DNA of 64,000 nucleotides from Sphaerodactylus townsendi (Eukaryota): positions 24,428,001 through 24,492,000 of the forward strand of contig NC_059438.1 of assembly GCF_021028975.2 (NCBI RefSeq). Reading direction: 5' to 3'. Position numbers and translations under genes: made by a program. The notes beneath the pieces are model-generated. The model saw only the letters and a program-made list of their open reading frames with translations, did not search any database and had not been told where the DNA came from. Positions 105 to 60,583 of the stretch are shown one piece after another; position 1 is the first letter of the stretch; every line of letters begins with the position of its first letter.

Positions 105-408
105 AGTGTTGAAGGCTTTCAAGAAACCAAGATTCAACTGGTAGTTGTGAAGGTTTTACAGGCTGTGTGGCAGAGTGGTCTGAGTAGGAGTCTTGTTCCT
201 GGCGTTTAGCTGCTAGAATCTGTGGCTGGCATCTTCAGAGGTGTATCCACAGAGAGAAGTCTGTTGTACATAAAGGTTGGACCACGGTGTATAATAGACT
301 TCTCTCCTTGTGATACCTCTTCAACCACAGATGCACGAAATGGCTGATAAGGCTAAGATACACCAGGCTCCGCGACCCACGCTTCTGAAAACTACCAGCA
401 ACCAACAT
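105..408. mobile_element. Degenerate Penelope-like element terminus with inverted arrangement
   Basis: gaaggctttc...tctgtggctggcatcttcagagg resembles the copies at 24564, 28778, 44367 and 48185, but is much noisier. Confidence 0.55.
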
Positions 409-9897: not shown

Positions 9898-10082
9898 CAG
9901 GGGTCTGCAACCTGCAGCTCTCCAGATGTTCAAGGACTACAATTCCCACCAGCCCCTGCCAGCATGGCCAATTGGCTCAGCATTGGCCAATTGGCTCAGC
10001 ATGGCCAATTGGCCATGCTGGCAGGGGCTGATGGGAATTGTAGTCCTTGAACATCTGGAGAGCCGCAGGTTGCAGACCCCTG
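9898..10082. mobile_element. Palindromic hAT MITE (TIR CAGGGGTCTGCAACC) with internal duplication
   Basis: Whole-element inverted repeat; 8-bp TSD ACTTAGAT at 9890-9897 and 10083-10090. Confidence 0.92.
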
Positions 10083-11333: not shown

Positions 11334-11468
11334 CATAGGTGTCAAACTCGCGGCCCTCCAGATGTTATGGACTACAGTTCCCATCATCCCCTGCCAGCAT
11401 GATGCTGGCAGGGGATGATGGGAACTGTAGTCCATAACATCTGGAGGGCCGCGGGTTTGACACCTGTG
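11334..11468. mobile_element. Palindromic hAT MITE (TIR CAYAGGTGTCAAAC)
   Basis: Near-perfect hairpin; TSD GCCTAGAA at 11326-11333 and 11469-11476. Confidence 0.92.
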
Positions 11469-15648: not shown

Positions 15649-15772
15649 CCTTTGGCACTCCAGTTGTTATGGACTGCAATTCCCATCAGCCCCTGCCAAT
15701 TGACCATGCTGGCAGGGGCTGATGGGAATTGTAGTCCATAACATCTGGAGTGCCAAAGGTTTGCCACCACTG
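15649..15772. mobile_element. Palindromic hAT MITE lacking its left TIR, inserted in the head of an older SINE (about 15625-15900)
   Basis: TSD GGTTAGAG at 15641-15648 and 15773-15780; right end ggtttgccaccactg. Confidence 0.85.
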
Positions 15773-20388: not shown

Positions 20389-20475
20389 ATGCCCAAGGGT
20401 GGGTGTTCTAAAACACCACAGTCTGAAGATTTCTCTCTCAGCAACGACATGGTGGAGAAACAAACTGGGAAAAAG
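20389..20475 (+). CDS. ANKRD11: Ankyrin repeat domain-containing protein 11, coding exon 1 (MPKGGCSKTPQSEDFSLSNDMVEKQTGKK)
   Basis: Translation matches the recalled vertebrate ANKRD11 N-terminus (MPKGGC...DMVEKQTGKK); 87 nt, phase-0 donor AAG|gtagtg. Confidence 0.96.
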
Positions 20476-20831
20476 GTAGTGGGTCTTTCTAACGTTTGTC
20501 TTGCTTCAGCCGTTGTTTTTGTTCTTCGGGGAGGGGGAGGGGACTGGCTTGGGCCTTCTGACCTCTGGGGAAAAGGAGAGGTCACTGAATACCACAATTT
20601 GAAAATCGAGGTCCAGCGACTCTGGCACAATCCATCCAAGGCCATGCCAGTGGTGATCGGCATCCTGGGCACCATTCTGAAAACACCAGGGCAGTGCTTG
20701 AAACATCTTACAATGGACAGTATCAACATCTTTCAGATTCAGAAGGCAGCTAAAATCAGTGATTCAGTTTTCTTATAACAATGCACTGTATCTCACACCC
20801 ACATAGTGATACTGATAGACTATACCTTCCC

Positions 20832-21148
20832 CAGCAGTGGCGTAGAGGGAGCAACAGTAGCATTGTGGTTAAGAGCAGGTGCGCTCTAATCTGGAGGAAC
20901 CGGGTTTGATTCCCTGCTCTGCTGCTTGAGCTGTGGAGGCTTCTCTGTGGAATTCAGATTAGCTTGTGCACTCCCACACATGCCAGCTGGGTGGCCTTGG
21001 GCCAATCACAGTTCTCTCAGCACTGTCTCAGCACCACCTACCTAACAGGGTGTTTGCTGTGAGGGGGAAAGGGAAAGGAGTTTGTAACCCCCTTTGAGTC
21101 TCCTTAGAGGAGAGAAAGGGGGGATATAAATCCAACTCTTCTTCTTTT
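20832..21148 (+). mobile_element. Squam3-like SINE inserted in the R4 remnant, with a duplicated head
   Basis: Same body as 12701; extra cagcagtggcgtag before the head. Confidence 0.88.
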
Positions 21149-21699
21149 TCAGAGTTCCAGTTGTTTACCACAGCCAGGTCTTTTAATTGTCCACCTTGAC
21201 CTTGATCTTCTCCAGAAATTGGTCATGCAATGCTTCATTGTTCCAGCTTTCAATCCTCGTTTTAATCACATTTTTTTTCTGTTTGGTTCTCTGGGCTTTC
21301 AGTAAATGTCTGTTCTTCACTTCAATCAATGCCTGTTCTTGACTTTCATTCACATAATCAGCCAGTGCATGTTTCTCCTCCTCTACTGCTTGCATTAAGC
21401 CTCTGCCACCAGATCTCCAGGGAAGGTATAGTCTATCAGTATTGCTATGTGGGTGTTAGATGTAGTTCATTGTTATAAGCTTCTGAGTTTTTCTATCCAG
21501 TGCATCCGAATCAGCCTGTCTCTGGCTGATGTACCTGATGATGGGTATGGCCCAGGTGTTGATGGCCTTGATGGTGTACCCACCATTTAATTTGGATTTC
21601 AAAATTTTCCTGACCATCTGGGTGTATTCACTGCTGGCCACAGTGAATGCACTTGCCCTTGCTTGATGTTATCCAGCTGGGTGGAGGAAGGGGAAAGTG

Positions 21700-21843
21700 A
21701 GGATGGGGTATGAGTCTGAAATTGTATGAGTATGATGTATTGTATGAAATTGTATGAGTATGATGTATGAGTCTGAAATTGTGTGCATTGAGGAATGCTG
21801 CTGTAAATTTCGTTGTGCGTGCACAATGACAATTTTTAAAAAA
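21700..21843 (+). mobile_element. Probable Rex1/Babar LINE 3' tail with short tandem repeats, nested in the R4 remnant
   Basis: aaatttcgttgtgcgtgcacaatgacaat terminal motif; repeated gtatgagt/gaaattgt units. Confidence 0.5.
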
Positions 21844-23974
21844 TGCTTATGCAAAATGCCCAGGTACGTATAGGCTTCCTTTTGGTTGCACTTGATTAGT
21901 TGGTCATCAGGCATTTCTGTGCTGTCACTCTCAGTGATCTTGCCCCTCTTTACCACCACAGTGGGGCACTTTTCCAGACCAAACTCCATCGGAATATCTG
22001 TGCTGAATATTCGGTCTGCGTTCACTAGAGACTGGATTTCTATTGTTGTTGTTGTTACTTGCCATCTAGTCACAACTGCCTAATGGCAAACCCCTTATTA
22101 TTTACTAAAATATGTATACCTGCCTTTCCTTTTGGCTCAAGGCTCACCTTTCTATATAGGTTTGCATCTCTGGGGAATTCCGGTCTGCATCTATTTGTAA
22201 TGTTAGTATCCACCCCAAGCCTTTGGAATGAAGCAGGCTTAAAAAACAAAGTCTAAGACTGCCTGAGAAGACGAATGTGCTAGGCTGGAATGTTTGCTGG
22301 GATCGTTGCCAGATTTCACACAAGAAGGCCTAGATGTTGAGGCCTGACTGCAGAGTGCTGCTGCTGATGGGCCTGGCGAGAAATTATCAGCATGTCCTTG
22401 ACTGCTTCATGGCATATAAGGCTGCAATTCAGAAATGCTGATTGCTGGAAATTGCAGAGAGGGAGCTGCTAGTTTCACCTGCAAGGAATGCTTCATGTGA
22501 GGAAAGGATACCGAAGGGTCAAGTTGCGCGGTTGGGGGGGGTGGCATTTTTGGAACAGTGGTGTCAGTCTTTGTTTTATTGCTCATGTTGGCTTTTGTGT
22601 TTTGTGTATAAGCACAATGCCACTGAGGATGGATTAGCGGGGATGGCTGCACCCCTGGATGTAGGAGGGAGAGTGCGTTCTGTAGTGGATGAAGGTTGTA
22701 CATTTGTCTGTTCTACTATATACACTCTTTGTACAGCTTGCACTTTTCTGGTATGCTTGTTAAAAATGGGGGTCTGTGAACTCTTCCTACAAGTGTGCCT
22801 GCTTCCCCCTGTCGTCATGTAAATAAAGACCGTGCATTGAGGAAGGTCCATCTTCCGGGCAGTGGATGCCAGCAACAGGGGCCCAGAGCGCCGCTGCTTC
22901 CCCCACTATATGCAGCAGGGCAGGCTGGCTCCAGCATGGTCAGAAAAGTGGGTCTTTGATGGCCTAGCCTTGATCTTCCCAACCTGTCAAGAAATGCACA
23001 GTCTCTTGTTCACAAGAGGGCAGGCGTGGGAGCCCAGTTAATTGGCTGTAGGAGACTGTGCCAATGTATCATTGCTCTCGAGTTAGCTTTTCTGCTGTGT
23101 GCTGAAACAGTGACTAAGGGGAAAGGCACTTGGTCATTAGACCTTTGCTTTCAGGGATTGCTGTGTACACACTTCTGGGAGCACAGCTTTTAATTTATCT
23201 TGTGTTTGTCAACACTCCACAAGGGCCTCTGCCTGCATGCCTTTGGCTGTCTTGGGTTCATTGGCTTGGGAGGGGCATGTCAGAAACACTCTGCTATAGA
23301 GGCTATTCCGAGACACCATTTGCTAACCCGCTGGGCCCGCAAGTGGGAACAGACAGGGCTGTGGAGTTATCATTTTTTGAATGAGCAGCTCTTGGAAGCC
23401 TGAGCTGGCACCGTAGCCAATTGATAGACACCTGCTTTGCACTGCCCAGTAGCTCCAGGGAGAGGGAGACGGGAAAGACCTTGTTGACCGTAGTCCCTGG
23501 GGAGCCACTGTGGGTCGGAGCAGACAACGTTAACCTGATCTGACTCACCTTCAGATGTGCGGCTGCATTAGCGGACACTAGTTCTAGTCACAATTGATTA
23601 GTCTGTTCAGACCATGCTGCTGACCAATTATCTTGCCTTGGCATCCCATTGGAATAAGCATATTAAAATTGTTTTGACCTGCTGTAATTGCTGTTTCTTA
23701 AAATTACAAGTTTAAAAAAAAAGGGACAGTTTGGGATTCAGGAAGTATTCAGAAAATGGAAGCGTTCTTTTCAGGAGAAACAAAGAACACGAGGAATTTT
23801 CACCCACTGAAATCTGTTTTCGGATAGTAAACAATGCTGGAATTGTCGTGTTTGGTGTGTATATTCCACACAATTGACCCCTTGTTGTTGGCATTCTCTG
23901 GTTCTCAGCATGGAGCTTTTTGCATAAGTGCTTATTGTTTGGGAAATCCAAGTTTCAAGGGTTTAACTGGGACT

Positions 23975-24031
23975 CTGGCTTTTATCTTGCACTTTTGAAA
24001 GCTGGCTTTTATCTTGCACTTTTGAAAGCTG
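23975..24031. repeat. Perfect 27-bp tandem duplication
   Basis: ctggcttttatcttgcacttttgaaag x2. Confidence 0.95.
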
Positions 24032-24563
24032 TGTGAACTACCTTGCCGTGCTCTGGTAACAAGGAATGGGGCAGCTTCTGTTGCCAGGCTGTAAATGTTA
24101 TATCCATGTATTCAGAAGAATTACCTCTCTTCCTCAAACACCTGCTCAGGGGGACTTCCCAAACAAATCTAATAAATATTATTAAAACATCCATTATAAA
24201 TATCTGTAAAAAGCAGCGTTAAGCAGACTAAATTTTTAGCTATAAAACAGCTCTCAAATTTAGACCATAAATTAGTTGAAAAGCAATTAATAACTCAAGT
24301 TAAAAGCTTGGGGATACCTATAATACCAAACAAAATGCCAGGTGCTCACCCTGTCTCTCGTTGCCACCCACCTTCACTCTGCGGGGGTGGGGGGCACACA
24401 GAGGCCAGGGCTTAGAAGGAATTATCCCAGTTGGCAAACTGGAAAGTATAGAAGGAGGTACTCCTTTAAATAACCTGGCCTCAAACTTTTTAGAGTCAAA
24501 GAACCGGCACTTTGAATTGTGTTCAGAAACAAATGGGCTGCCAATGCAAGCTTTTACCACAGT

Positions 24564-24690
24564 ATATTGTCAAAGGCTTTCATGGCCGGATTCAACTGGT
24601 TGTGGTGGGTTTTCCGGGCTATGTGGCCGTGGTCTGGTGGACCAGATCCACCAGACCACAGCCACACACCCGGAAAACCCCCACAGCCAG
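24564..24690 (-). mobile_element. Short Penelope-like insert with inverted 5' end (no ribozyme core retained)
   Basis: Terminus tattgtcaaaggctttcatggccgg; internal inverted repeat; 12-bp TSD TTTTACCACAGT at 24552 and 24691. Confidence 0.8.
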
Positions 24691-25098
24691 TTTTACCACA
24701 GTGCGGATGGAATCCTTTCGTCCAGCCTTCAACAATAACCCGGCTGTTACATTTTGAACCAGCAGAAGTTTCCAAAGAGTTTTCAAGGGCAGCCCCATGT
24801 AAAGCACACCTAACCTGAATGTGATCAGAGCATTCAACACTGTGGCTGGATCTTACTTTTCAAGAAATAGCTGTAGTTGCTGGGCCAGCCAGAGCTGATA
24901 CAAGATGCTGTGTGCATCCTGCTCTAGGACAGGCCGTCTTCTCAGTCCTGGATATGGCCTTATTAATTCCCATTTTAATGAAGCTGTCTTTGGGCAGGAA
25001 GGTACCAGTTGTGTTGTTCTAAATCTGCAAGTCTTTGGTACCACTGGGGAGCGAGTTCATGAACTTCGGTTGCTGAGATAGGATTAGAAACGTTAGGC

Positions 25099-25177
25099 CA
25101 GGAGTGTCCAACTCTGACGCTTCAGATGTTCATGGACTACAATTCCCATCAGCCCCTGCTGATGTTGGACATCTCTG
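25099..25177. mobile_element. Internally deleted hairpin hAT MITE (TIR CAGGRGTGTCCAAC)
   Basis: One arm of the shared core; TSD CGTTAGGC/CATTAGGC. Confidence 0.8.
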
Positions 25178-25948
25178 CATTAGGCAGTGGCAGAGAAACT
25201 TATTAGAGGAGCTAGGCAGGCCCCTTCCCAGTTCTTCTGCATTCTTCCATTGCATGCTGTCAGTCTTCCACATTCTTCCACCCATCCCCAGTCCCCAGAC
25301 ATTGCAACCAGAATACGTTATGATTATGAACATTTATCCAACATGCACATTTCTGTCCACCCCAGCACCCGTATCTATAATCTGCCTCTTTGTCACCTAC
25401 AGCTTCAGTTCACAAGTCAAGAAATAAGATAAGTATTTCCATGTGGAGAAGCCAAACAGAATGGTAGTATGTTTATTTTGGCTCTTCCAAGTATATTCTG
25501 GCACCTTAATACCTTCTACAGTGAGGAAAATCCTTCCCCCCCCCCCTACTTTGAGCTGTTAACAGCATGTCCCTCTTTCTAAATATTAGTTAATTCCTAG
25601 TTTGACCTCTTCAGGCAACAGAGGCTGACTATTACTCCAGAGCAAGAGCTCACTGTGCAGGGCTCTTTTTCGGAGGAATTGCCTGAAACAGACACCTGGC
25701 CCCTGCTGCACAGGACTCCTTAATTTATTTCCCTGTTCTGAATTTTAGAAAGTAATATATACGCTAGAAGCAGGAGACTGGACAGATAAGCTGTTGGGCT
25801 GCGAGATGACACAAGATTGAAAGGATTGCCAGTGGAGGATATGAAAACTGTGGAGACACACATTTTCAAATTAAAAAGAAAGAAGCCATTGGGTCTGATT
25901 AACATACCACGCATTGGTTCTTTTTTTTAAATATAAAAGGTAAATTTT

Positions 25949-26528
25949 ATTATTTATTTTATTTATTTATTAATTAGGTTTATAGACCGCCCTCCCCCGG
26001 AGGGCTCAGGGCGGTGAACAATATAAAGAGCACAATCAATTAAAATACAATATAAATATAAATTAGGATGGCTCTGATAAAAATAAACCTTACTCTATTA
26101 AAATGCAGCATTAATAATTTAATTCCAGATGGCGCCTACTATCATTCCCACAGAAGCCCCAGAGTGGGGGTTTATAGGTCTTCATGATGTCAAAGAAGAA
26201 GGGAGGGAGGGAGGGAGGGGGCCCCTATCAACGGCTAGTCTCCCCAAAGGCCCGGTGGAACAGCTCAGTCTTGCAGGCCCTGCGGAACTCAGTGAGGTCC
26301 CGCAGGGCCCGGACAGCTGGAGGAAGAAGCTGCTCCCACCAGGCTGGGGGGCCAGAGGCTGTGCAAAGGCTCTGGCCCGAGTGGAAGGCTACAATGCACA
26401 TTATCATGGAGGGGCCAGGGATCACCAGTAAATTGGCCTCTGCCGAACGCAGAGACCAGTTCGGGACATATGGGGTAAGACGGTCCCGTAGGTACGGAGG
26501 CCCCAGGCCGCGTAAGGCCTTAAAGGTT
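25949..26528 (-). mobile_element. L2 LINE 3' end, same subfamily as 18431
   Basis: LPPAVRALRDLTEFRRACKTELFHRAF; (TTTA)n tail. Confidence 0.85.
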
Positions 26529-26599
26529 AATTAAAGAAAAAAAGGATACAATTGATACTGATACAATACAAACATCGTGTTGAAAAGAAAAGAATAGAC

Positions 26600-26749
26600 C
26601 AGGGGTAGGGAACCTGCGGCTCTCCAGATGTTCAGGAACTACAATTCCCATCAGCCCCTGCCAGCATGGCCAATTGGCCAATGGCTGACAGAGGCTGATG
26701 GGAATTGTAGTTCCTGAACATCTGGAGAGCCGCAGGTTCCCTACCCCTG
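26600..26749. mobile_element. Palindromic hAT MITE (TIR CAGGGGTAGGGAACCT)
   Basis: Hairpin; TSD GAATAGAC at 26592-26599 and 26750-26757. Confidence 0.92.
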
Positions 26750-27030
26750 GAATAGACAGAAGTAAAACAATACCATATTGTTACAAAGCCCCCTTAATTG
26801 GAACGGTCGATAAATACTAACTTTCTCTATTGGTTACTTCACCATCCATGGAACTTTTGTAATATTTCAATTCAGTTACCATCTACCTTCTTAATAAAGT
26901 AAATCTTATCAGTACTGTATCTATCTGTTTATCTCAGATGTAAGGAGAGAAGAAATATCTCTGAATACATCACATTATGTTAAGTTTATTCCAGAAGAAA
27001 TTTTTCAAAGGTGTCCAAGTGTCTTCCTTG

Positions 27031-27332
27031 GACAGCAGTGGTGTAGGAGGTTAAGAGCTCGTGTATCTAATCTGGAGGAACCGGGTTTGATTCCCAGCTC
27101 TGCCGCCTGAGCTGTGGAGGCTTATCTGGGGAATTCAGATTAGCCTGTATACTCCCACACACGCCAGCTGGGTGACCTTGGGCTAGTCACAGCTTCTCGG
27201 AGCTCTCTCAGCCCCACCCACCTCACAGGGTGTTTGTTGTGAGGGGGGAAGGGCAAGGAGGTTGTAAGCCCCTTTGAGCCTCCTGCAGGAGAGAAAGGGG
27301 GGGATATAAATCCAAACTCTTCTTCTTCTTCT
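27031..27332 (+). mobile_element. Young full-length Squam3-like SINE
   Basis: A/B boxes, (CTT)n tail; TSD TCTTCCTTG at 27022-27030 and 27333-27341. Confidence 0.9.
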
Positions 27333-27619
27333 TCTTCCTTGTTCCGAGACGCATTTGCCTGTATGGAAAATGTTAAAAGGTCTAAATCCATATAGGCCCA
27401 AATTTTTGCATCCCAGTCACTCAGCGAGGGTATCTGAGCTGTATTCCAAAGTTTTGCCACTTCGATTCGAGGTGCTGCAGTTAAACCAGTCCATGGTTCT
27501 TAACTCATACATGAAATTGCTGTTCTCCTACCAAATATATGAAGCATGTCAAAATGAATCGGCCTCTGTATCCCACCCCCATAATGGAAAGCAGTTAGTT
27601 TTATTTTTTAAGGGGCCCA

Positions 27620-28590
27620 GAATTCAGCAAGGAAATGACACACCCATTAGCCCGATGTCCTTCTCAGATGAATTGGTAGAAAGCATTATTAAAGAGAACA
27701 GTCAATAAGTACATAGAAGATCAAGCCCTTCTAACCAGCATGGCGTCTGCAAACAGAAGTCTTTCTTAACCAATTTTTGGAGTTCTATGAGAATAGTCAC
27801 CAGCGTGATGGTCTAGTGTGGTTGGTGGCCAGAGTCCTGGATTAGACCAGGAATATTTTGAGCAGTTAATTCCTCTCAGAGTAGGAGGTGGGGCAGAGTC
27901 TGTGGGTGCTCCCAACATGTACTGAACCAACATATCTAGATTTCTAAACCTTTCTGCTGAAGTCTCTCATCAGATGCTCCTGAAGTCAGGGCACTAGAGT
28001 GCTGTTTCTCTTGCAGATTCGTAAACAGTTAAACAAGAAGCAGAGGGCAGGAGCAGATGGACGGTTTTCACAAGGGTGGAACTGTTTGTAAATGATCCAG
28101 GCCCCGAGTGAGCAGCAAAGTGTCCAGGAAGTGGGCAACAAAGAACTTCACCTTTGGAGTGCAGGCAGCAGCATAGCAAATGCACACTGGAAGGCGAAAA
28201 AAATCTTAACCTTAAATATATGGTGATGGAGTCAGAGAGGGAAAGAGCTCCTTGTAGAAATGGATAGCTCAATTCAAATGTTAATTCAGTTTGTGGCGGG
28301 AGTGAGAAAAACAAGATGGCCCATATTTTGATGCCCTTGAATCATCAGCCTGGGGAGTTAACTGCCCTGGGAATACCATATACCTTTGTAGTCCCTCTAC
28401 CCCAGGAAAGGTGCCGACGACAGCAGCCTTCATGCGAGGAGAGGCTAAAGAGCTTTTAAAGGGAAAATGGCACGATTGAAGCTCATAAGATTCTGCATAG
28501 TGGAGAGAAGGACCTTCCTTTTTCATACATAAAACTAGAGCTGGTGGTCCCAGAATTAATGGGCAGTAGATTTTGGACAGACAGATTCAG
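27620..28590 (+). mobile_element. Highly decayed CR1 LINE (further fragments to about 29895)
   Basis: ttggtagaaagcattattaaaga, accaatttttggagttctatga, tatctagatttc and gggcagtagatt CR1-like motifs. Confidence 0.55.
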
Positions 28591-28777
28591 ATTTAGAGAC
28601 CTTTTATTAGGCATATACAGCATGAGGACAAAAAGGAAGAAGGAAAGAGTAAATCCAGTAGAGAACAGTGAAAACAGTGTGAACAGAAGCCAAGGGAACC
28701 TAGTTCAAAGTGCGCAGCAAAAATCTGGCCATGATCTCTGTTATTTCAGCCTCGAGATTATTGAGCAGAAGAATCTT

Positions 28778-29019
28778 GTATTGTCGAAGGCTTTCACGGC
28801 CGGAATTACTGGGGTGCTGTGTGGTTTCCGGGTTGTATGGTTCTAGCAGCATTCTCTCCTGATGTTTCGCCTGCATCTGTGGCTGGCATCTTCAGAGGAT
28901 CTGAATCTTCAGCTTTTAGCTTCAGATCCTCTGAAGATGCCAGCCACAGATGCAGGCGAAACGTCAGGAAAGAATGCTGCTAGAACACGGCCATACAACC
29001 TGGAAACCACACAGCACCC
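28778..29019. mobile_element. Penelope-like insert with inverted-duplicated pseudo-LTR
   Basis: About 100-bp inverted repeat; terminus gtattgtcgaaggctttc; 12-bp TSD CAGAAGAATCTT at 28766 and 29020. Confidence 0.85.
28927..28969 (+). ncRNA. Minimal type I hammerhead ribozyme motif (Penelope-associated)
   Basis: UCCU-CUGAAGA-U-GCC(loop)GGC-GAAA-CG-UC^AGGA: intact CUGANGA and GAAA core, stem I UCCU/AGGA, stem II GCC/GGC, palindromic ACGU stem III. Confidence 0.7.
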
Positions 29020-29199
29020 CAGAAGAATCTTCTTTGCATTGGTAGAAAGATCCAAGAACCCAGCTGAGGTTGAGGCAGAGAATTGGACAGACAGAAGAAA
29101 GTACTTCTTGAAGGATTCTCACCTACGCCATTGGTTGTCTCTCAGTGCAGGGCTGGCTACAAGCTTCAGTTTTGTTTTTTCATGATGAAGAGCTGGATG

Positions 29200-29400
29200 G
29201 CCTCAGCTGGCCCAGGGTCTTCAGATCTCAGAAGCTAAACAAGGTCACCTCCTGCTTAGTATTTTGATGGGAAGCCACTGAGAATGTCCAGATTTGCAAT
29301 GCAGAGAAAAGCACTGGCAAACTACCTCAGTTTCTTGCCTTGAAAACCATACGGGGTCTCCATGAGTTGGTTGCAACTTGATGATACTTTACACATACAA
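29200..29400 (+). mobile_element. 5S-Sauria-type SINE
   Basis: cagatctcagaagctaaacaagg...ttagtattttgatggga (5S-like) followed by ggcaaac...cttgccttgaaaacc tail. Confidence 0.7.
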
Positions 29401-29549
29401 AAGAATATGACCTATTGAAAAGAAACAAGTCATAAAATGGAACGTCCATGTTTGCAGATTAGAGCACCTCTGAACACTGTGAGGCTAGACCTGCCAAACT
29501 TGCTTGTGGGCACCCTGGAAGCATCTGTGAGAAACAGGATACTGAACTA

Positions 29550-29851
29550 GAAGAGGAGAATAGGAGTTTGGATTTCTACCCCACCTTTCTCTCCTGTAAG
29601 GAGGCTTAAGGTGGCTTACAATCTCATTTCCCTTCTCTCCCCACAGCAGACACCTGTGAGGCAGGTGGGGCTGAGAGAGTTCAGAGAGAACTGTGACTAG
29701 CCCAAGGTCACCCAGCAGGAATGCAGGAGTGCGGAAACACATCTGGTTCAGCAGATAAGCTTCTGCCATTCAGGTGGAGGAGTGGGGAATCAAACCCGGT
29801 TCTCCAGATTAGAATCCACCTGCTCTTAACCACGACACCACGCTTGCTCTC
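29550..29851 (-). mobile_element. Squam3-like SINE
   Basis: Reverse-complement SINE with ggaatcaaacccggttctccagattag head. Confidence 0.88.
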
Positions 29852-30377
29852 GATAGGCCTTGTCTGATGCAGCAGGGCTTGTGCTATGTTCTAATGGGCT
29901 AGATATCAAACCAAGGCCTGATGGCTGGAAGACACCTTTGCAATGCTTTCCTTCCAATTGGGGGAACTAAAAGCTAAAAGCTCTAGGAACAAGGAAATGG
30001 AGTGAATCAGTGGAGTTGTAAATATCTTTTTTTTTAAAATCTGTCTGTGGGGCTCATACCAGAGAGGAACCAAGAAAGAGGAAGGAGTGTTGTGGACACA
30101 GACATGGCATAGTCTTGTGACTGTGCTGCACTCTGAGCAGCCCGCCACAATCTTGTGAGTGATGCAGGCATTGTGTTTTCCTTCCAGCAAACAAGGGGAT
30201 TTTTGTCAGAGGGAGTAGTGAGTTTCTAGTAATAGTCTTGCATGAACTAGTATTCAATTTCCTTGACGTGCTCTCAGTAGGTAGGGTTGAATCCCAGAAC
30301 TATTACATAGTTATGAGCAAAACTATATAGTGCTCTGGGAAAGCAAGCATACTGATTTGTAATAAAATGGTGTTTTG

Positions 30378-30378
<1 letters not shown>

Positions 30379-30425
<47 letters not shown>
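30379..30425. repeat. (CA)n microsatellite
   Basis: Directly visible. Confidence 0.97.
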
Positions 30426-30427
<2 letters not shown>

Positions 30428-30914
30428 ATGTTTGTTCAGGCACAGGCATGTGCTCTGCTTCAGAAAGAACGAACGAACGAACGAATGAACATCTATGGAA
30501 AGTGAAATCTTGGGGGAAGATGATTGCTTGCTGTAATCTTTCATTAATACCTCTCATATTGCTCCTCTAGTTATTGTTTCTAACAGTGCCTTTCCTATTC
30601 TGGTTCTGGTCGTTATTTTCACTCTATTCTGTTCCTTCCCATCCTTGAATTCCTTAACTGGCCTGAGGTGTCTCCCACCTGGGAGGCAGGAAGTTGTTAA
30701 ACTTGGTTCTGCCTCCCTGAGCAATTGTTGGGAATCACCCATATCAAGATGCCCTCCTCAGAGTAGAAAGAATCCTCTCAGTGAGTCTCCAGGGTTCCGT
30801 TTGGAAAGAACAGCACTGACCACCTATTTCCAAGCTTGCTTCGAAGTGCCGGTTGTTATCTTTAAATGCTCTCCTTCTGGGCCATTCTGCAGGGCTTTCA
30901 TATGTATACATGTA

Positions 30915-31158
30915 CAGTGGAACCTCGGTTTTTGCTGGTAATCTCTGGCGATACTTGGCGAAAACTGAAGCCGGCAAAAACCAAACCTATGCCGTCTGTG
31001 CATGCGCTACGCAAACAGCGTAGCAAATTTATGCAAAAAGCGTAAATTTTCGCAAACGGTGTAGCCGAAAACAGAGGCACCTGGCGAAAACTGAGGCAAA
31101 AAAAACGGCCGGAGGCAACCGGCGAAAACAGAAGGCGATGGTTACCGAGGTTCCACTG
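30915..31158. mobile_element. Tc1/mariner-superfamily Tigger/pogo-type MITE
   Basis: TIR CAGTGGAACCTCGGT / ACCGAGGTTCCACTG flanked by a TA duplication; internal GCGAAAACNGA repeats. Confidence 0.88.
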
Positions 31159-31270
31159 TATAAGATCTCCTGCAGGACTCCTGTTTCTGGCTAGGAGGGC
31201 ATGGTCCTCAGGAACTGGGCCTCTGCACATGGGTGCATCTGTTTTGGGATTTGTCTAAGAGCAGCTAGCC

Positions 31271-31771
31271 CAGTGGTGGCGAACCTATGGCACGGGTGCC
31301 AGAGGTGGCACTCAGAGCCTTCTCTGTGGGCATGCACACACACACACACACATCTAGGCTGGCCTGGGCCACCTGGGCTTGATTATTAGCATTAAACCTA
31401 AGACCTAATTTTGGGGAAGCAGTGTAGGTTACCCTGTTAAGTGCTGTTAAACCCCTACAGGTGATGTGAAGAACTAAAGTGCAATCCTTTATTCTGGGAG
31501 TAAGCTCAGCTGCTGGCAATGGGGCTTGCTTCTGAGTAAACCCTCCTAGGGTCGTGATTCACCCGTTGGGAGAGTTGCACAGTTTTTTCAAAGCAAAGCC
31601 ACCGACAACCACCAAGCTTGCTCCCGAGTAACGCATGCCTCTGATCCAACCGTTTTTTAAAGCAAAAACCTCAGTATTCAGGTTAAATGGCCGTGTTGGC
31701 ACTTTGCAATAAATAAGTAGGTTTTAGGTGGCAGTTTGGGCACTCGGCCTCAAAAAGGTTCGCCACCACTG
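31271..31771. mobile_element. Non-autonomous hAT element, TIR CAGTGGTGGCGAACCT
   Basis: Perfect TIRs; TSD AGCTAGCC at 31263-31270 and 31772-31779. Confidence 0.92.
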
Positions 31772-33091
31772 AGCTAGCCTGACATCTGGCCTAAACAGTT
31801 GTAGGCAGCAGGTGAAGATTTTTCTGTTTGATCAGGCTTTTTGCATTGATTGGACTGTGTCCTTATTTTTTCTCGTCTCCTCTTTCGTATGTTTTATGCT
31901 TGCTTTCATGCACCAGTGATATTTTCTGTGTGATTTTATGTTGTTAGCAAGTTGTGTTATTCTTTTGAGGATTGTATTAGCTGTGAGCCACCTTGGAAGC
32001 CAGTAGGTTGAGAGCTTGCAGGATATTAACTCGCTTAATTAAATTCCCTAGAATCCTCCACAGACTGCCGTGACACCGTTCACATTTGTTCTGAACTGGC
32101 TGGTGCGCCTCATGCAGTTAATTACTGGATGAAATTGGAGTACCACATTGTCATGCTTGCTGCGGTGACAGAGTTGGTGCTGCTTGAGGATCGGAGGTCC
32201 ATCCCACACCTTGCCTGCTCAACTCTTGCCCTCAGCTTATGAAAAAAAACCCCATCCCAATATGGGAGGGAAGGACTGGCTCTGAGGGATGGTGAATCCT
32301 TCCTTGAAGGAGGTGGCACTAGACCAGTCTTTGTACCAAATCTCCTTACAAGGTTTTCAGAGCCATCCACCATATCTTCTGAACCGTCTTCCGAAACGTG
32401 GAAACCCCGTTCCTGCCTGGAAAACAATTCCAGAAAATGGTATTGAGTCTTTATCTCTAACCCTTGGTAATTTTGCCTTGGGATTTTATCAGACTCAGTC
32501 TTTTCAGCAATTGCATGAAACCCAATGAAGACATTGGGTTCTCCTCTAATTTGTGTCCAAAGGAATGGTGGATTAGTTGAAATGCTGACTGAAAGCAGTA
32601 ACAGGATGGACGGGGGAGGTCCTGTTGGTTTGGCGGGGGGGGGCGGGGGGGGAGAGGTTCTTGCTCTGCATGGTGACAAGTTTTCATTTGGCTCCACCTC
32701 AGTTGCTCAATGTCCAAGCTCAGTGATCCATGCTCTCTGCCAGCTGGTCCAAAGTGTGGCTGTAAAGATCTAAACAGTGGCATGCAGCAGCGGTCGTATT
32801 ACCCCCATCATGGTAGAGATGCTCTGCTTGTTGCTGGTTTGTCACTCAACACAGTTCACAGTACTGATTTTGACCTGTAAATTGTTCCACCTGGCCATTC
32901 GGGTTATCTGGACTCCCCTACCGAAGTGTGGCGGCAGAAGCTAGTAGCAGGACCTTCTCAGTGGTTGCAGCACATCTGTGGGAGTCTTCTCTCCCAGAGA
33001 CTGCCTGCTGCCTGCTGTGTGAGCATGCCGCTTCTTGGGGGAAAACCTTGTTTCTTTTCATTTTTGCTTGGCTTCAGTTAGACAAGTAGGA

Positions 33092-33375
33092 GCAGCAGTG
33101 GCGTAGTGGTTAAGAGCAGGTGTACTCTAATCTGGAGGAACCGGGTTTGATTCCCCGCTCTGCCACTTGAGCTGTGGAAGCTTATCTGGGAATTCACTGT
33201 ACAGTCCAACAGACGCCAGCCGGGTGACCTTGGGCTAGTCACAGTTCTTCTAAGCTCTTTCAGCCCCACCTACCTCACAGGGTGTTTGTTGTGAGGGGGG
33301 AAGGGAAAGGAGTTTGTAAGCCCCTTTGAGTCTCCTCTAGGAGAGAAAGGGGGATATACATCAACTCTTCTTCTT
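33092..33375 (+). mobile_element. Squam3-like SINE
   Basis: A/B boxes, (CTT)n tail; direct repeat CAAGTAGGA at 33083 and 33376. Confidence 0.9.
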
Positions 33376-34666
33376 CAAGTAGGATTTAGTGCATGACTAG
33401 TTTGTTGCCCAGATTTGCCATAAAAAATAGAGGATTATATTGGCATACTCGTGGTGGTATGTCCAGTAAATACATTTTGTGTATGTAATGGTAACAAGGT
33501 TGTCTTACATTCAGAGTCGTCTCCCTTTTGAGTCAACACAGAGTTTCCCTCTGGGTGGTTTAGTTTTCCTCCTGTTGATTTCTAGCTTGTTCCGTTTCAT
33601 CTGAATGTCTCATAGCACTTTTTAAATAGCACTGTTTTTCCCCTTAATGATGGCTTTGGTGGTTGTGTGTTGTAGACCACTTTGACTGCTTGCTCTAAGT
33701 CCTAAGGGAAGAAGAGGCTGTGGGGTGGTTCATCTGTTCCGGTTCTCTCTCCAAAGCCTTTTGTTCAAGGAGAGGTCAACCGCAGGGTCAGGGCGCTCCC
33801 TCCTGTTTCTGCCTGAGCCGTTTCCCATTAAATGCTCCCAGTGACCGCACTTTGCCGAGCAGCAGCTGAAGACCACAGCGGGTGAATCTAACAGATGGGG
33901 GCTAAGGAGATGGCCTCCTTCCTTTCTGAGGACCCCTTTCTCAAAGAGCTGCCTCCTTCCCAGCCAGAGGCAGAGCCAGGTGGCCTTGGGATTTGCCCTT
34001 CTCAGCTGGGATGCCGCAGTGATTGTGGCGAGTCTGAAATATCCAGGGAAGGGAGGTTGAATGTCTGTGGTTAGGCAAAGGGCCAAGAGCTGCCCGTTGT
34101 ACTTCTCTCCTCATGACAGGGCGGAGGGGGGGAGCAGTGTAACTTCAGCCCTCCTGCTCCCCCTCCGCCCTCACCCATCCTGCATGCAGAGGGGAGGTTA
34201 CATGCTGATGTGGACAGCACATGTGTGTTAAGTACTTTTTTCCCCTGACTGGAGTGCTGATCCAGTTAATGGCTTCACCACTGATCAGCTTCCAGAATAT
34301 TTTCCTGGTTGGAGTTCACAGTTGTTTGCCACGAGGAAAATCTTCCTACCACTTTGGAAGCAGAGATTTCTTTTGCAGTGTAAACCTCTCAAGTATGTTT
34401 TCAAGAGATGAGAAAGAGGAGCCTATATAGTTTTTGGGAAACCAAAGTGGACCAGCGAGGTCCAGTGTTGGACCAGGAAGTGGGAGACCCAGGTCTGAAT
34501 TCCCGCTCTGCCGTGGAAACTAGCTGGATGGTATTGCGCCAGCATGTCCCACTCATTTAAGTTTTTTGGGGGGTGGGGGTGGGGGAGGTATTTTTCATAA
34601 CAACCTTTGCTTGTTGGGCAAATACTGTGTTTCTTCTGAGCCACATCATTTTTCTTTTCTTTCCAG

Positions 34667-34805
34667 GATAAAGATAAAGTTTCTCTAACCAAGACTCCCA
34701 AGTTGGACCGGAGTGATGGCGGCAAAGAGGTGAAAGAGAGAGCTACAAAGCGGAAGTTGCCTTTCACTGTTGGAACAAATGGAGATCAGAAGGATTCGGA
34801 CACAG
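34667..34805 (+). CDS. ANKRD11: ANKRD11 coding exon 2 (DKDKVSLTKTPKLDRSDGGKEVKERATKRKLPFTVGTNGDQKDSDT)
   Basis: Acceptor ttttcttttctttccAG, donor CAG|gtaac; 139 nt; in frame with the previous exon; matches ANKRD11. Confidence 0.96.
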
Positions 34806-35900: not shown

Positions 35901-36565
35901 TTTTTTTAAACATAAACCTCCTTTATTAATATAATAAGTTTTTCATACAGTTGCAATATAAATGATGCAACACATACAACATATATTACATGATGATACT
36001 GCTATCCAACATTACTAATATGAAAAGCTCAATAAAAAAAACTAACATTAAATTCTACTTCCAGTTACCTTCACCACAATCTTCTATATCAGGGGTCTGC
36101 AACCTGCGGCTCTCCAGATGTTCATGGACTACAATTCCCATCAGCTCCTGCCAGCATGGCCAGTTGGCCATGCTGGCAGGGGCTGATGGGAATTGTAGTC
36201 CATGAACATCTGAAGAGCTGCAGGTTGCAGACCCCTTATATTTATAACTATTTATACCATCACACATCCAACTACAATATTATCATTCTTATAATGATAC
36301 AATATAATCTACCCATACTTTCCACTCTAATTTGTATTCCATATCAGACTTACATAGAATATAACCTGTCAGTTTAGCCAATCTTAGAAGCCGCACGACT
36401 TTTAGTTGCCATTCTTGCACCGTTGGAATCTTTGATGTTTTCCAATTCTTGGCCCAAATTATTCTTGCAGCAGCAGAGAAGTATTTAAACAGGTCATCCT
36501 ATCTCTTATCTTGCTTTGCATCTGAAATGCCTAGCAAATACATTTCAGGCTTCATGTCAGTCTTA
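35901..36565 (-). mobile_element. 5'-truncated L1 LINE
   Basis: Poly-T end; minus peptide KPEMYLLG...LFKYFSAAARIIWAKNWKTSKIPTVQEW (L1 ORF2 C-terminus); 11-bp TSD TCACTGAGGAT at 35890 and 36566. Confidence 0.85.
36090..36236. mobile_element. Palindromic hAT MITE (TIR CAGGGGTCTGCAACC) nested in L1
   Basis: Hairpin with the shared core; right TSD damaged. Confidence 0.88.
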
Positions 36566-44366: not shown

Positions 44367-44497
44367 GCTCTGAAGATGCCAGCCACAGATGCGGGCGGAA
44401 CGTTAGGAGAAAATGCCACTGGAACACGGCCATACAGCCCGGAAAACCCCACAACACCCCACTGATTCTGGCCATGAAAGCCTTCGACAATACATTG
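44367..44497 (+). mobile_element. Short Penelope-like insert starting at a mutated hammerhead motif
   Basis: ctctgaagatgccagccacagatgcgggcggaacgttagga...gaaagccttcgacaatac; 11-bp TSD AACATTCGTAT at 44356 and 44498. Confidence 0.85.
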
Positions 44498-48184: not shown

Positions 48185-48338
48185 GAGAGTTGTGGGGTTT
48201 CCGGGCTGTATGGCCGTGTTCCAGTAGCATTTTCTCCTGATGTTTCACCTGCCTCTGCGGCTGGCATCTTCAGAGGATCATCCTCTGGAAACCCCACAAC
48301 ACTCCAGTGATTCTGGCCGTGAAAGCCTTCGACAACAC
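48185..48338. mobile_element. Short Penelope-like insert with inverted 5' part
   Basis: Same terminus gaaagccttcgacaacac; 14-bp TSD ATTGTGTTGTTCTG at 48171 and 48339; CpG-decayed hammerhead on the - strand at 48235-48277. Confidence 0.85.
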
Positions 48339-48611
48339 ATTGTGTTGTTCTGTTTATTACTAGACTTGAGAATTGGTAACCACCGCAGGTGCTGAGATCC
48401 TGGACATCCCATTTGGGATCCCACCTGGATCATCCCCTCAGCCTTCCTGAAGAAGCTGCTGTTTTCATCTGCTGCTCTGCAGCCACTGAGTTCTGCAACT
48501 GTCCCAGTCTTAAAGCTGTTAAAAGTTTTGATTCTGTCCGCCAACCAGCGGGGACATTTGCTTCCCATCTCATGGAGAAATGCTGTTTTCCTCAGTAGGT
48601 GCCAGTTCTTG

Positions 48612-55819: not shown

Positions 55820-55965
55820 CAGGGGTGTCCAACTCTGGGGCTTCAGATGTTCATGGACTACAATTCCCATCAGCCCCTCCTGCAATTCCCAATTGGCCAT
55901 GCCAGCAGGGGCTGATGGGAATTGTAGTCCATGAACATCTGAAGCCCCAGAGTTGGACACCCCTG
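55820..55965. mobile_element. Palindromic hAT MITE (TIR CAGGGGTGTCCAACT)
   Basis: Hairpin; TSD CCTTACAC/CCCTACAC. Confidence 0.9.
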
Positions 55966-60437: not shown

Positions 60438-60583
60438 CAGTGGTGGCGAACCTTTGGCACTCCAGATGTTATGGACTACAATTCCCATCAGCCTCTGCCA
60501 GCATGGCCAATTGGCCATGCTGGCAGGGTCTGATGGGAATTGTAGTCCATAACATCTGGAGTGCCAAAGGTTCGCCACCACGG
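60438..60583. mobile_element. Palindromic hAT MITE (TIR CAGTGGTGGCGAACCT), 180 bp upstream of an ANKRD11 exon
   Basis: Near-perfect hairpin; TSD TCTTAGAC at 60430 and 60584. Confidence 0.92.

Follow-up and report, generated by a model that had tools for sequence, protein, structure and literature searches.

Does an intron of ANKRD11 in the gecko Sphaerodactylus townsendi carry a ribozyme able to cut its own transcript, and is the inverted copy of this ribozyme just upstream the reason why the gene tolerates it? The question arises from a 64,000-nt stretch of contig NC_059438.1, referred to here as the window. An earlier note, made from the letters alone, had recognized an intact hammerhead core on the sense strand of the gene and proposed that the upstream arm base-pairs over the core and switches it off. 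ANKRD11 is known from human genetics to be dosage-sensitive. A literature search found no paper on a ribozyme in this gene.

ANKRD11 is encoded on the + strand, where ten of its coding stretches were mapped between 20389 and 76787 in window coordinates; named gecko ANKRD11 proteins match the large downstream exon at 96-100%, and a Pfam search with this exon returned no family. The hammerhead motif is located inside a 14,191-nt GT-AG intron (20476-34666), which is bounded upstream by the first coding exon (20389-20475, +) and downstream by the second (34667-34805, +). We infer that CpG islands at about -110/-104 kb represent the ANKRD11 promoter.

Re-reading of the sequence confirmed the letters and coordinates given for the sense motif at 28927-28969 (+). 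This minimal type I hammerhead motif consists of a 4-bp stem I (28927-30/28966-69), a CUGANGA core (28931-37) followed by one extra U (28938), GAAA at 28958-61 and the triplet GUC at 28963-65, with the predicted cut after 28965. The inverted copy at 28857-28899 (-) differs, as had been reported, at a single base: the G in the CG of stem III is replaced (CG>CA), which amounts to a CpG transition within the palindrome. Two parts of the described structure had to be revised. Stem II does contain the 3-bp GCC/GGC pairing, but its fuller form had been missed: the 3 bp are followed by an A.A mismatch, 2 further bp and a 7-nt loop. Stem III is indeed a self-complementary palindrome, but it has no loop; only two bases lie between A15.1 and U16.1, and nothing separates 15.2 from 16.2, so that helix III can only form between two molecules. 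A role of the twin as a further ribozyme, or as the partner in a dimer, was also considered and was rejected, as in the pre-mRNA the twin is present only as the complement.

The core boxes, a NUH triplet, the 4-bp helix I, the extra 9/10.1 base, the G10.1-C11.1 pair and the palindromic helix III are all present, and the proposed minimal type I architecture that requires dimers agrees with published descriptions (PMC4209133, in part). Helix I, the extra base and G10.1-C11.1 are common features of the minimal hammerheads of metazoan Penelope-like elements (PLE), which have been reported in reptiles and which share with the gecko motif the palindromic 15.2-16.2 bases, the thousands of dispersed copies and the pairing of motifs on opposite strands (excerpts of PMC4209133). 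Helix II of the gecko motif is shorter, with 5 bp and an A.A mismatch compared to 7-8 bp in the Schistosoma families described there, and the gecko copies are very uniform. A generic type I descriptor matched the window at four places, namely 28927 (+), 28899 (-), 48277 (-) and 37650 (-), the last of which is unrelated to the other three. Two checks had been suggested, a search with hammerhead models and a search for a Penelope match. The former yielded no Rfam hammerhead match, neither in the whole window at E<=5 nor in 28915-28990 at E<=10, as is to be expected when helix III is missing, and this does not refute the motif; the latter led to a parental open reading frame (ORF) with reverse transcriptase (RT).

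The exact 43-mer has 8,991 copies (4,479 + 4,512) in the genome of 1.81 Gb. The reversed 43-mer, used as a control, is absent (0 copies), so the motif is more frequent than chance would give; with one exact copy per about 200 kb, it is at the same time far from rare. At one locus, an RT/endonuclease-like frame was found upstream of the motif, and a genome search with this frame gave 152 matches in the 150 of 6,363 candidates that were scored. At L094 (L094:3799-6255), the same 43-mer opens an uninterrupted ORF of 819 amino acids, which contains an RVT_1 domain (E 1.1e-12, above the Pfam cut-off). Around residue 700, this protein shows a pair of GIY-YIG-like motifs; Pfam gave no GIY-YIG match, and a GIY-YIG label or PF01541 is attached to 2 of the 120 homologues listed. 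Its best homologue is an Anolis carolinensis protein labelled 'uncharacterized', with 690 of 816 residues identical (85%). The Penelope origin suggested previously is thus supported by an intact parent with an RT ORF and an Anolis carolinensis homologue, and the window insertion adds one more copy to an element that, like its motif, was known already. The next named matches of the L094 protein are from insects, with at most 57% identity. The 85% identity to the Anolis protein possibly reflects horizontal transfer or strong constraint.

A Pfam search with a 228-amino acid fragment returned no family, and a 2028-amino acid frame in L095 was discarded, as it is a fusion of low-complexity sequence and a Poseidon fragment. 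Kilobase-long, G-rich tracts of short period adjoin Poseidon copies at L047, L050, L095:4340-9490 and L096:4760-7501; these are possibly assembly artefacts at hairpin-forming inserts. The literature search found no paper on Poseidon Penelope elements of geckos.

Alignment to the L094 parent also defines the anatomy of the locus. The motif coordinates stand, but the whole unit is larger than had been described and spans 28766-29031 including a 12-bp target-site duplication, whose left (28766-28777, +) and right (29020-29031, +) copies are the only occurrences of this 12-mer in the window. The left arm (28778-28904, -) is a 5'-truncated Poseidon pLTR that extends, counted from the start codon at 28937, from -15 to about +118, has a 5-nt deletion and carries a tail of ~33 nt at its outer end. 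It is joined head-to-head, via a short patchwork of arm-end bases at 28905-28921 that resembles the junctions of many other loci, to the right arm (28922-29019, +), a 5'-truncated, tail-less pLTR, which extends from -15 to +83, or to +86 if the 3 nt common to the duplication are counted. Since the left arm ends at +118 and the right arm at +83 to +86, only the left arm possesses the ~33-nt tail. The right arm carries the first ~28 codons of the element ORF, whose start codon (28937-28939, +) overlaps core position A9 and lies 26 nt ahead of the predicted cut. Both 3' ends point outward within the duplication, the arms are 96-97% complementary over 69 + 32 nt, and they disagree at one subfamily site. 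Judged by these features of the sequence, 28778-29019 is one insertion of a Penelope-like retrotransposon of the Poseidon clade, which comprises both arms.

A similar organization has been described for PAc, the Poseidon element of Anolis carolinensis (PMC11167929, in part). In both, the hammerhead overlaps the start of the ORF, C3 and G8 precede the start codon and the cut lies 26 nt behind it. The RT start of PAc at +111-118 fits the tailed end of the gecko copy at +118; both have a tail of ~33 nt, which in PAc lies between two RT start sites. The gecko copy is, in contrast to PAc, a non-coding head-to-head fragment of 240 nt, the comparison being based on the published description of PAc. 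The covered portion of PMC11167929 does not treat inverted insertions.

Further repeats are found in and around the window. Four additional insertions of this or a related Poseidon family, all of them older, are located at 44368-44494 (+), 24565-24635 (-), 107-241 (-) and 48191-48277 (-), the latter together with 48287-48339 (+). Two SINE-like copies in inverted orientation (27049-27329 and 29554-29831), 2.2-2.7 kb apart, flank the insertion and could form a second intronic duplex. Short palindromic repeats that match the mir-5408 model below its gathering score are present at 9925-10055, 11360-11442, 15662-15746, 26627-26722, 36117-36210, 55846-55939 and 60464-60557 and are probably MITE-like elements. 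About 5-8.5 kb upstream of the window, L034 contains RT-like and recombinase-like frames, which we take to resemble a DIRS-type retroelement.

Is the inverted twin a peculiarity of ANKRD11? The first 100 exact 43-mer matches within the first 15 Mb of contig C1 were inspected, six of which turned out to be second views of the same insertion and were removed; the remaining 94 insertions were thus chosen on the exact 43-mer, and two of them (L133 and L134) possibly represent a single segment that was duplicated. An inverted piece is located within 700 nt upstream of the motif in 68 of the 94 insertions, and truncation occurred at most 25 nt from the start codon in 72. When arm ends were classified as short (+79 to +95) or long (+112 to +130), 13 of the 68 inverted cases had an end that belonged to neither class and do not enter the 2x2 table. 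The 55 classifiable pairs comprise 30 short-long, 24 long-short, one long-long and no short-short combination (Fisher p 1e-14), so that a tailed and a tail-less end are joined in 54 of 55, as in the window insertion. A duplication of 8-15 bp surrounds 40 of the 54 opposite-end pairs, compared to 15 of 500 random pairs. Subfamily variants, none of them at CpG sites, are concordant between paired arms in 24/27, 44/50 and 48/51 cases, which argues that both arms derive from one source lineage. The frequency of inverted pieces together with the alternation of ends identifies the twin as standard insertion anatomy. Inverted, 5'-truncated Penelope copies with a tail at one end and a duplication are a published layout (excerpts of PMC3846280 and PMC8557442). 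The inverted-pLTR insertions of these reports are likewise head-to-head with a one-end tail and a duplication of ~8-15 bp, whereas the gecko copy is reduced to two bare pLTR ends, and the alternation of ends was counted here.

Such strict alternation is consistent with priming from two ends, one at each of the two known RT start sites. According to this model of two-ended priming, the element protein, for which a dimer has been predicted in print, would make a nick in each strand, the two being offset by about 12 bp; from one of them reverse transcription would be primed at the +118 site, from the other at the +85 site. The two cDNAs would end close to the hammerhead's 5' edge and be linked via a short patchwork, and fill-in of the staggered nicks would yield the target-site duplication. 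Alternatively, the element may prime itself on an antisense template, a model that has been published (PMC3846280, in part). The literature search, whose scope mostly excluded subscription journals, found no paper that makes the link to two-ended priming.

Comparison with relatives suggests that the insertion is recent. Two relatives, B and D, differ from the window by about 2% in the flank (19/985 and 17/985 places), and their contigs align from exactly 29020, the first base of the right duplication copy, whereas the 27 and 60 letters preceding this point are unlike the arm. Judged from the alignment ends in 15 of 617 rows, the site is probably empty in both. The alignment of X2, which has the same organism label as D, breaks at 29042 and has no bearing on the presence of the insertion. 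The window insertion therefore looks young and lineage-specific, as far as alignments can tell.

The single base by which the twin differs from the motif can be explained in the same context. Among 36 partner arms that span the motif, seven are identical to it, and the base altered in the twin is the most frequently mutated site (10/36, eight of which are G>A), which identifies CG>CA as the commonest CpG decay at the sequence level and led us to dismiss a designed change. Non-CpG core sites are changed in 11 of 396 cells compared to 42 of 998 for non-core sites, and the 36 partner arms give no sign of preferential core breakage.

How would the two arms behave in a transcript? The computed fold bears out the claimed pairing of the upstream arm with the core: the transcript with both arms has an MFE of -199.5 kcal/mol, and a hammerhead-like fold lies 77 kcal/mol above the ensemble, or 73 kcal/mol just after the core has emerged. 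Since the pair is head-to-head, the complementary arm is transcribed first in either direction and masking is automatic. The further idea that the arm acts as a switch, or is the reason why the motif is tolerated, is not supported, as the same masked layout, in which at least 35 of the 43 motif bases are covered by the inverted arm, is found in 45 of the 94 sampled insertions regardless of place. When the arm is omitted, predicted pair probabilities are 0.85-0.96 for helix II (0.96 for the closing 3 bp) and 0.02-0.08 for helix I; ViennaRNA leaves out core contacts, and the computed fold is thus understated.

It could still be argued that arm and ribozyme form a two-state element, which the host uses to tune the ANKRD11 pre-mRNA. 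An intact core is present in the sense strand of an intron, as it is in RECK and C10orf118 of amniotes. The hammerheads of these two genes have a full helix III and are widely conserved, whereas the gecko motif lacks helix III as well as an Rfam match and resides in a young repeat. Cleavage has been confirmed for RECK and C10orf118 (PMC10761166, in part), showing that intronic hammerheads of amniotes can be active. However, switching across a gap of 77 kcal/mol would take a helicase or editing, helix III is missing and close relatives probably lack the insertion. Moreover, the motif is the same as in all 8,991 copies and thus shows no locus-specific change, and about 0.45 exact sense copies are expected by chance in a gene of 180 kb. 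We therefore regard a regulatory switch as extremely improbable.

Another scenario, to which we give somewhat more but still very little credence, is that not the ribozyme but the duplex matters: as with inverted Alu pairs, it might undergo ADAR editing or dicing, which would affect the intron slightly. The high complementarity of the arms (96-97%) and the MFE of -199.5 kcal/mol favor such an effect, and there are weak matches to miRNA-precursor models, which are, however, far below the gathering scores; with less than half of these scores, a miRNA precursor over the hairpin was rejected. Family-wide RNA of relative D shows A>G/T>C changes at 9 and 12 places compared to 12 and 16 in a DNA run of the same organism, which is no surplus, and this relative, the source of the counts, probably lacks the window insertion.

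Masking is probably not even needed, given that one copy has no helix III and that such ribozymes are reported not to cut alone. In the available parts of two studies, a single minimal hammerhead motif did not cleave and dimers cleaved little (PMC4209133), and the PAc ribozyme cut only together with the protein of the element, while no RNA-seq reads ended at its cut site (PMC11167929). By analogy, the hammerhead motif of the window is likely inactive in ANKRD11. The left arm of the pre-mRNA would be made first and pair with the right arm to a hairpin of ~100 bp, which would leave with the spliced intron, and nothing would be cut; an unpaired core without an intramolecular helix III would need a partner copy as well as the element protein.

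RNA reads of relative D, which are family-wide and not locus-specific, show no pile-up of ends. They stem from run X14, of which about 6 in 100 reads were taken; the unique flanks are covered at no depth and 83% of the reads continue unlike the window locus, so that the run says nothing about the window insertion. About 1,000 X14 reads contain the hammerhead core with other flanks and have loose ends at 28928 and 28970. They represent a second, expressed hammerhead-bearing family, which the copy at 107-241 resembles.

A further explanation starts from the opposite premise, namely that the ribozyme can cut pre-mRNA, in trans-dimers or together with the element protein, and that intronic sense copies persist mainly if they are masked or broken; the twin would then be accidental in origin and filtered by selection. 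About a dozen insertions of the Poseidon family are found in the ANKRD11 region between the CpG islands and the last exon. One of them, L036:6227-6441, is a second exact sense copy, ~52 kb upstream of the first and probably in a 5' intron of ANKRD11; it has an upstream inverted arm with the same CpG change. Masking is thermodynamically complete, an inverted arm lies upstream of each of the two exact sense copies of the region (-23.7 kb and 28927), and GAAA is broken in each of the two unmasked sense copies (-12.8 kb and 44368), a change found in only one of 85 divergent copies elsewhere. In addition, the PAc ribozyme does cut when the protein is present (PMC11167929, in part), and the introns of Xenopus contain fewer related retrozymes than expected (bioRxiv 10.64898/2026.07.22.740005, in part). 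However, the pattern comprises only four ANKRD11 copies and was noticed post hoc. The two unmasked sense copies are old (86-89% identity), and the core is damaged in 18 of 32 old copies elsewhere; antisense copies in ANKRD11 are core-damaged as well. About half of the sampled insertions are masked anyway, with no excess of core mutations. Tolerance by masking is thus very unlikely, though slightly less so than an effect of the hairpin. Taken together, the locus is, with high confidence, one young, 5'-truncated Poseidon insertion, whose motif is likely an inert passenger and whose twin is likely a product of the very event that brought the motif here.

The locus itself is of little weight, as it is one among about 9,000 identical motifs. 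Its broader relevance would change if head-to-head insertion acted as a safety catch of Poseidon, with two-ended priming masking the ribozyme in whichever direction a host gene is transcribed through it, and with selection removing or breaking unmasked intronic sense copies. We consider this very unlikely too. If it were true, thousands of protein-activatable hammerheads would shape which insertions lizard genes keep, and ANKRD11, with two exact copies masked and two unmasked copies broken in GAAA, would be one example. With the inert insertion as the preferred reading, the window provides a clean fossil of Penelope transposition. The 54/55 alternation of +85 and +118 ends ties two RT start sites known from in vitro work to the two ends of single insertions, and it bears on how Penelope elements make inverted ends with a one-sided tail. 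Furthermore, the genome of this gecko contains an intact ORF, and its copies are numerous enough to test by their orientation whether the ribozyme is harmful in introns.
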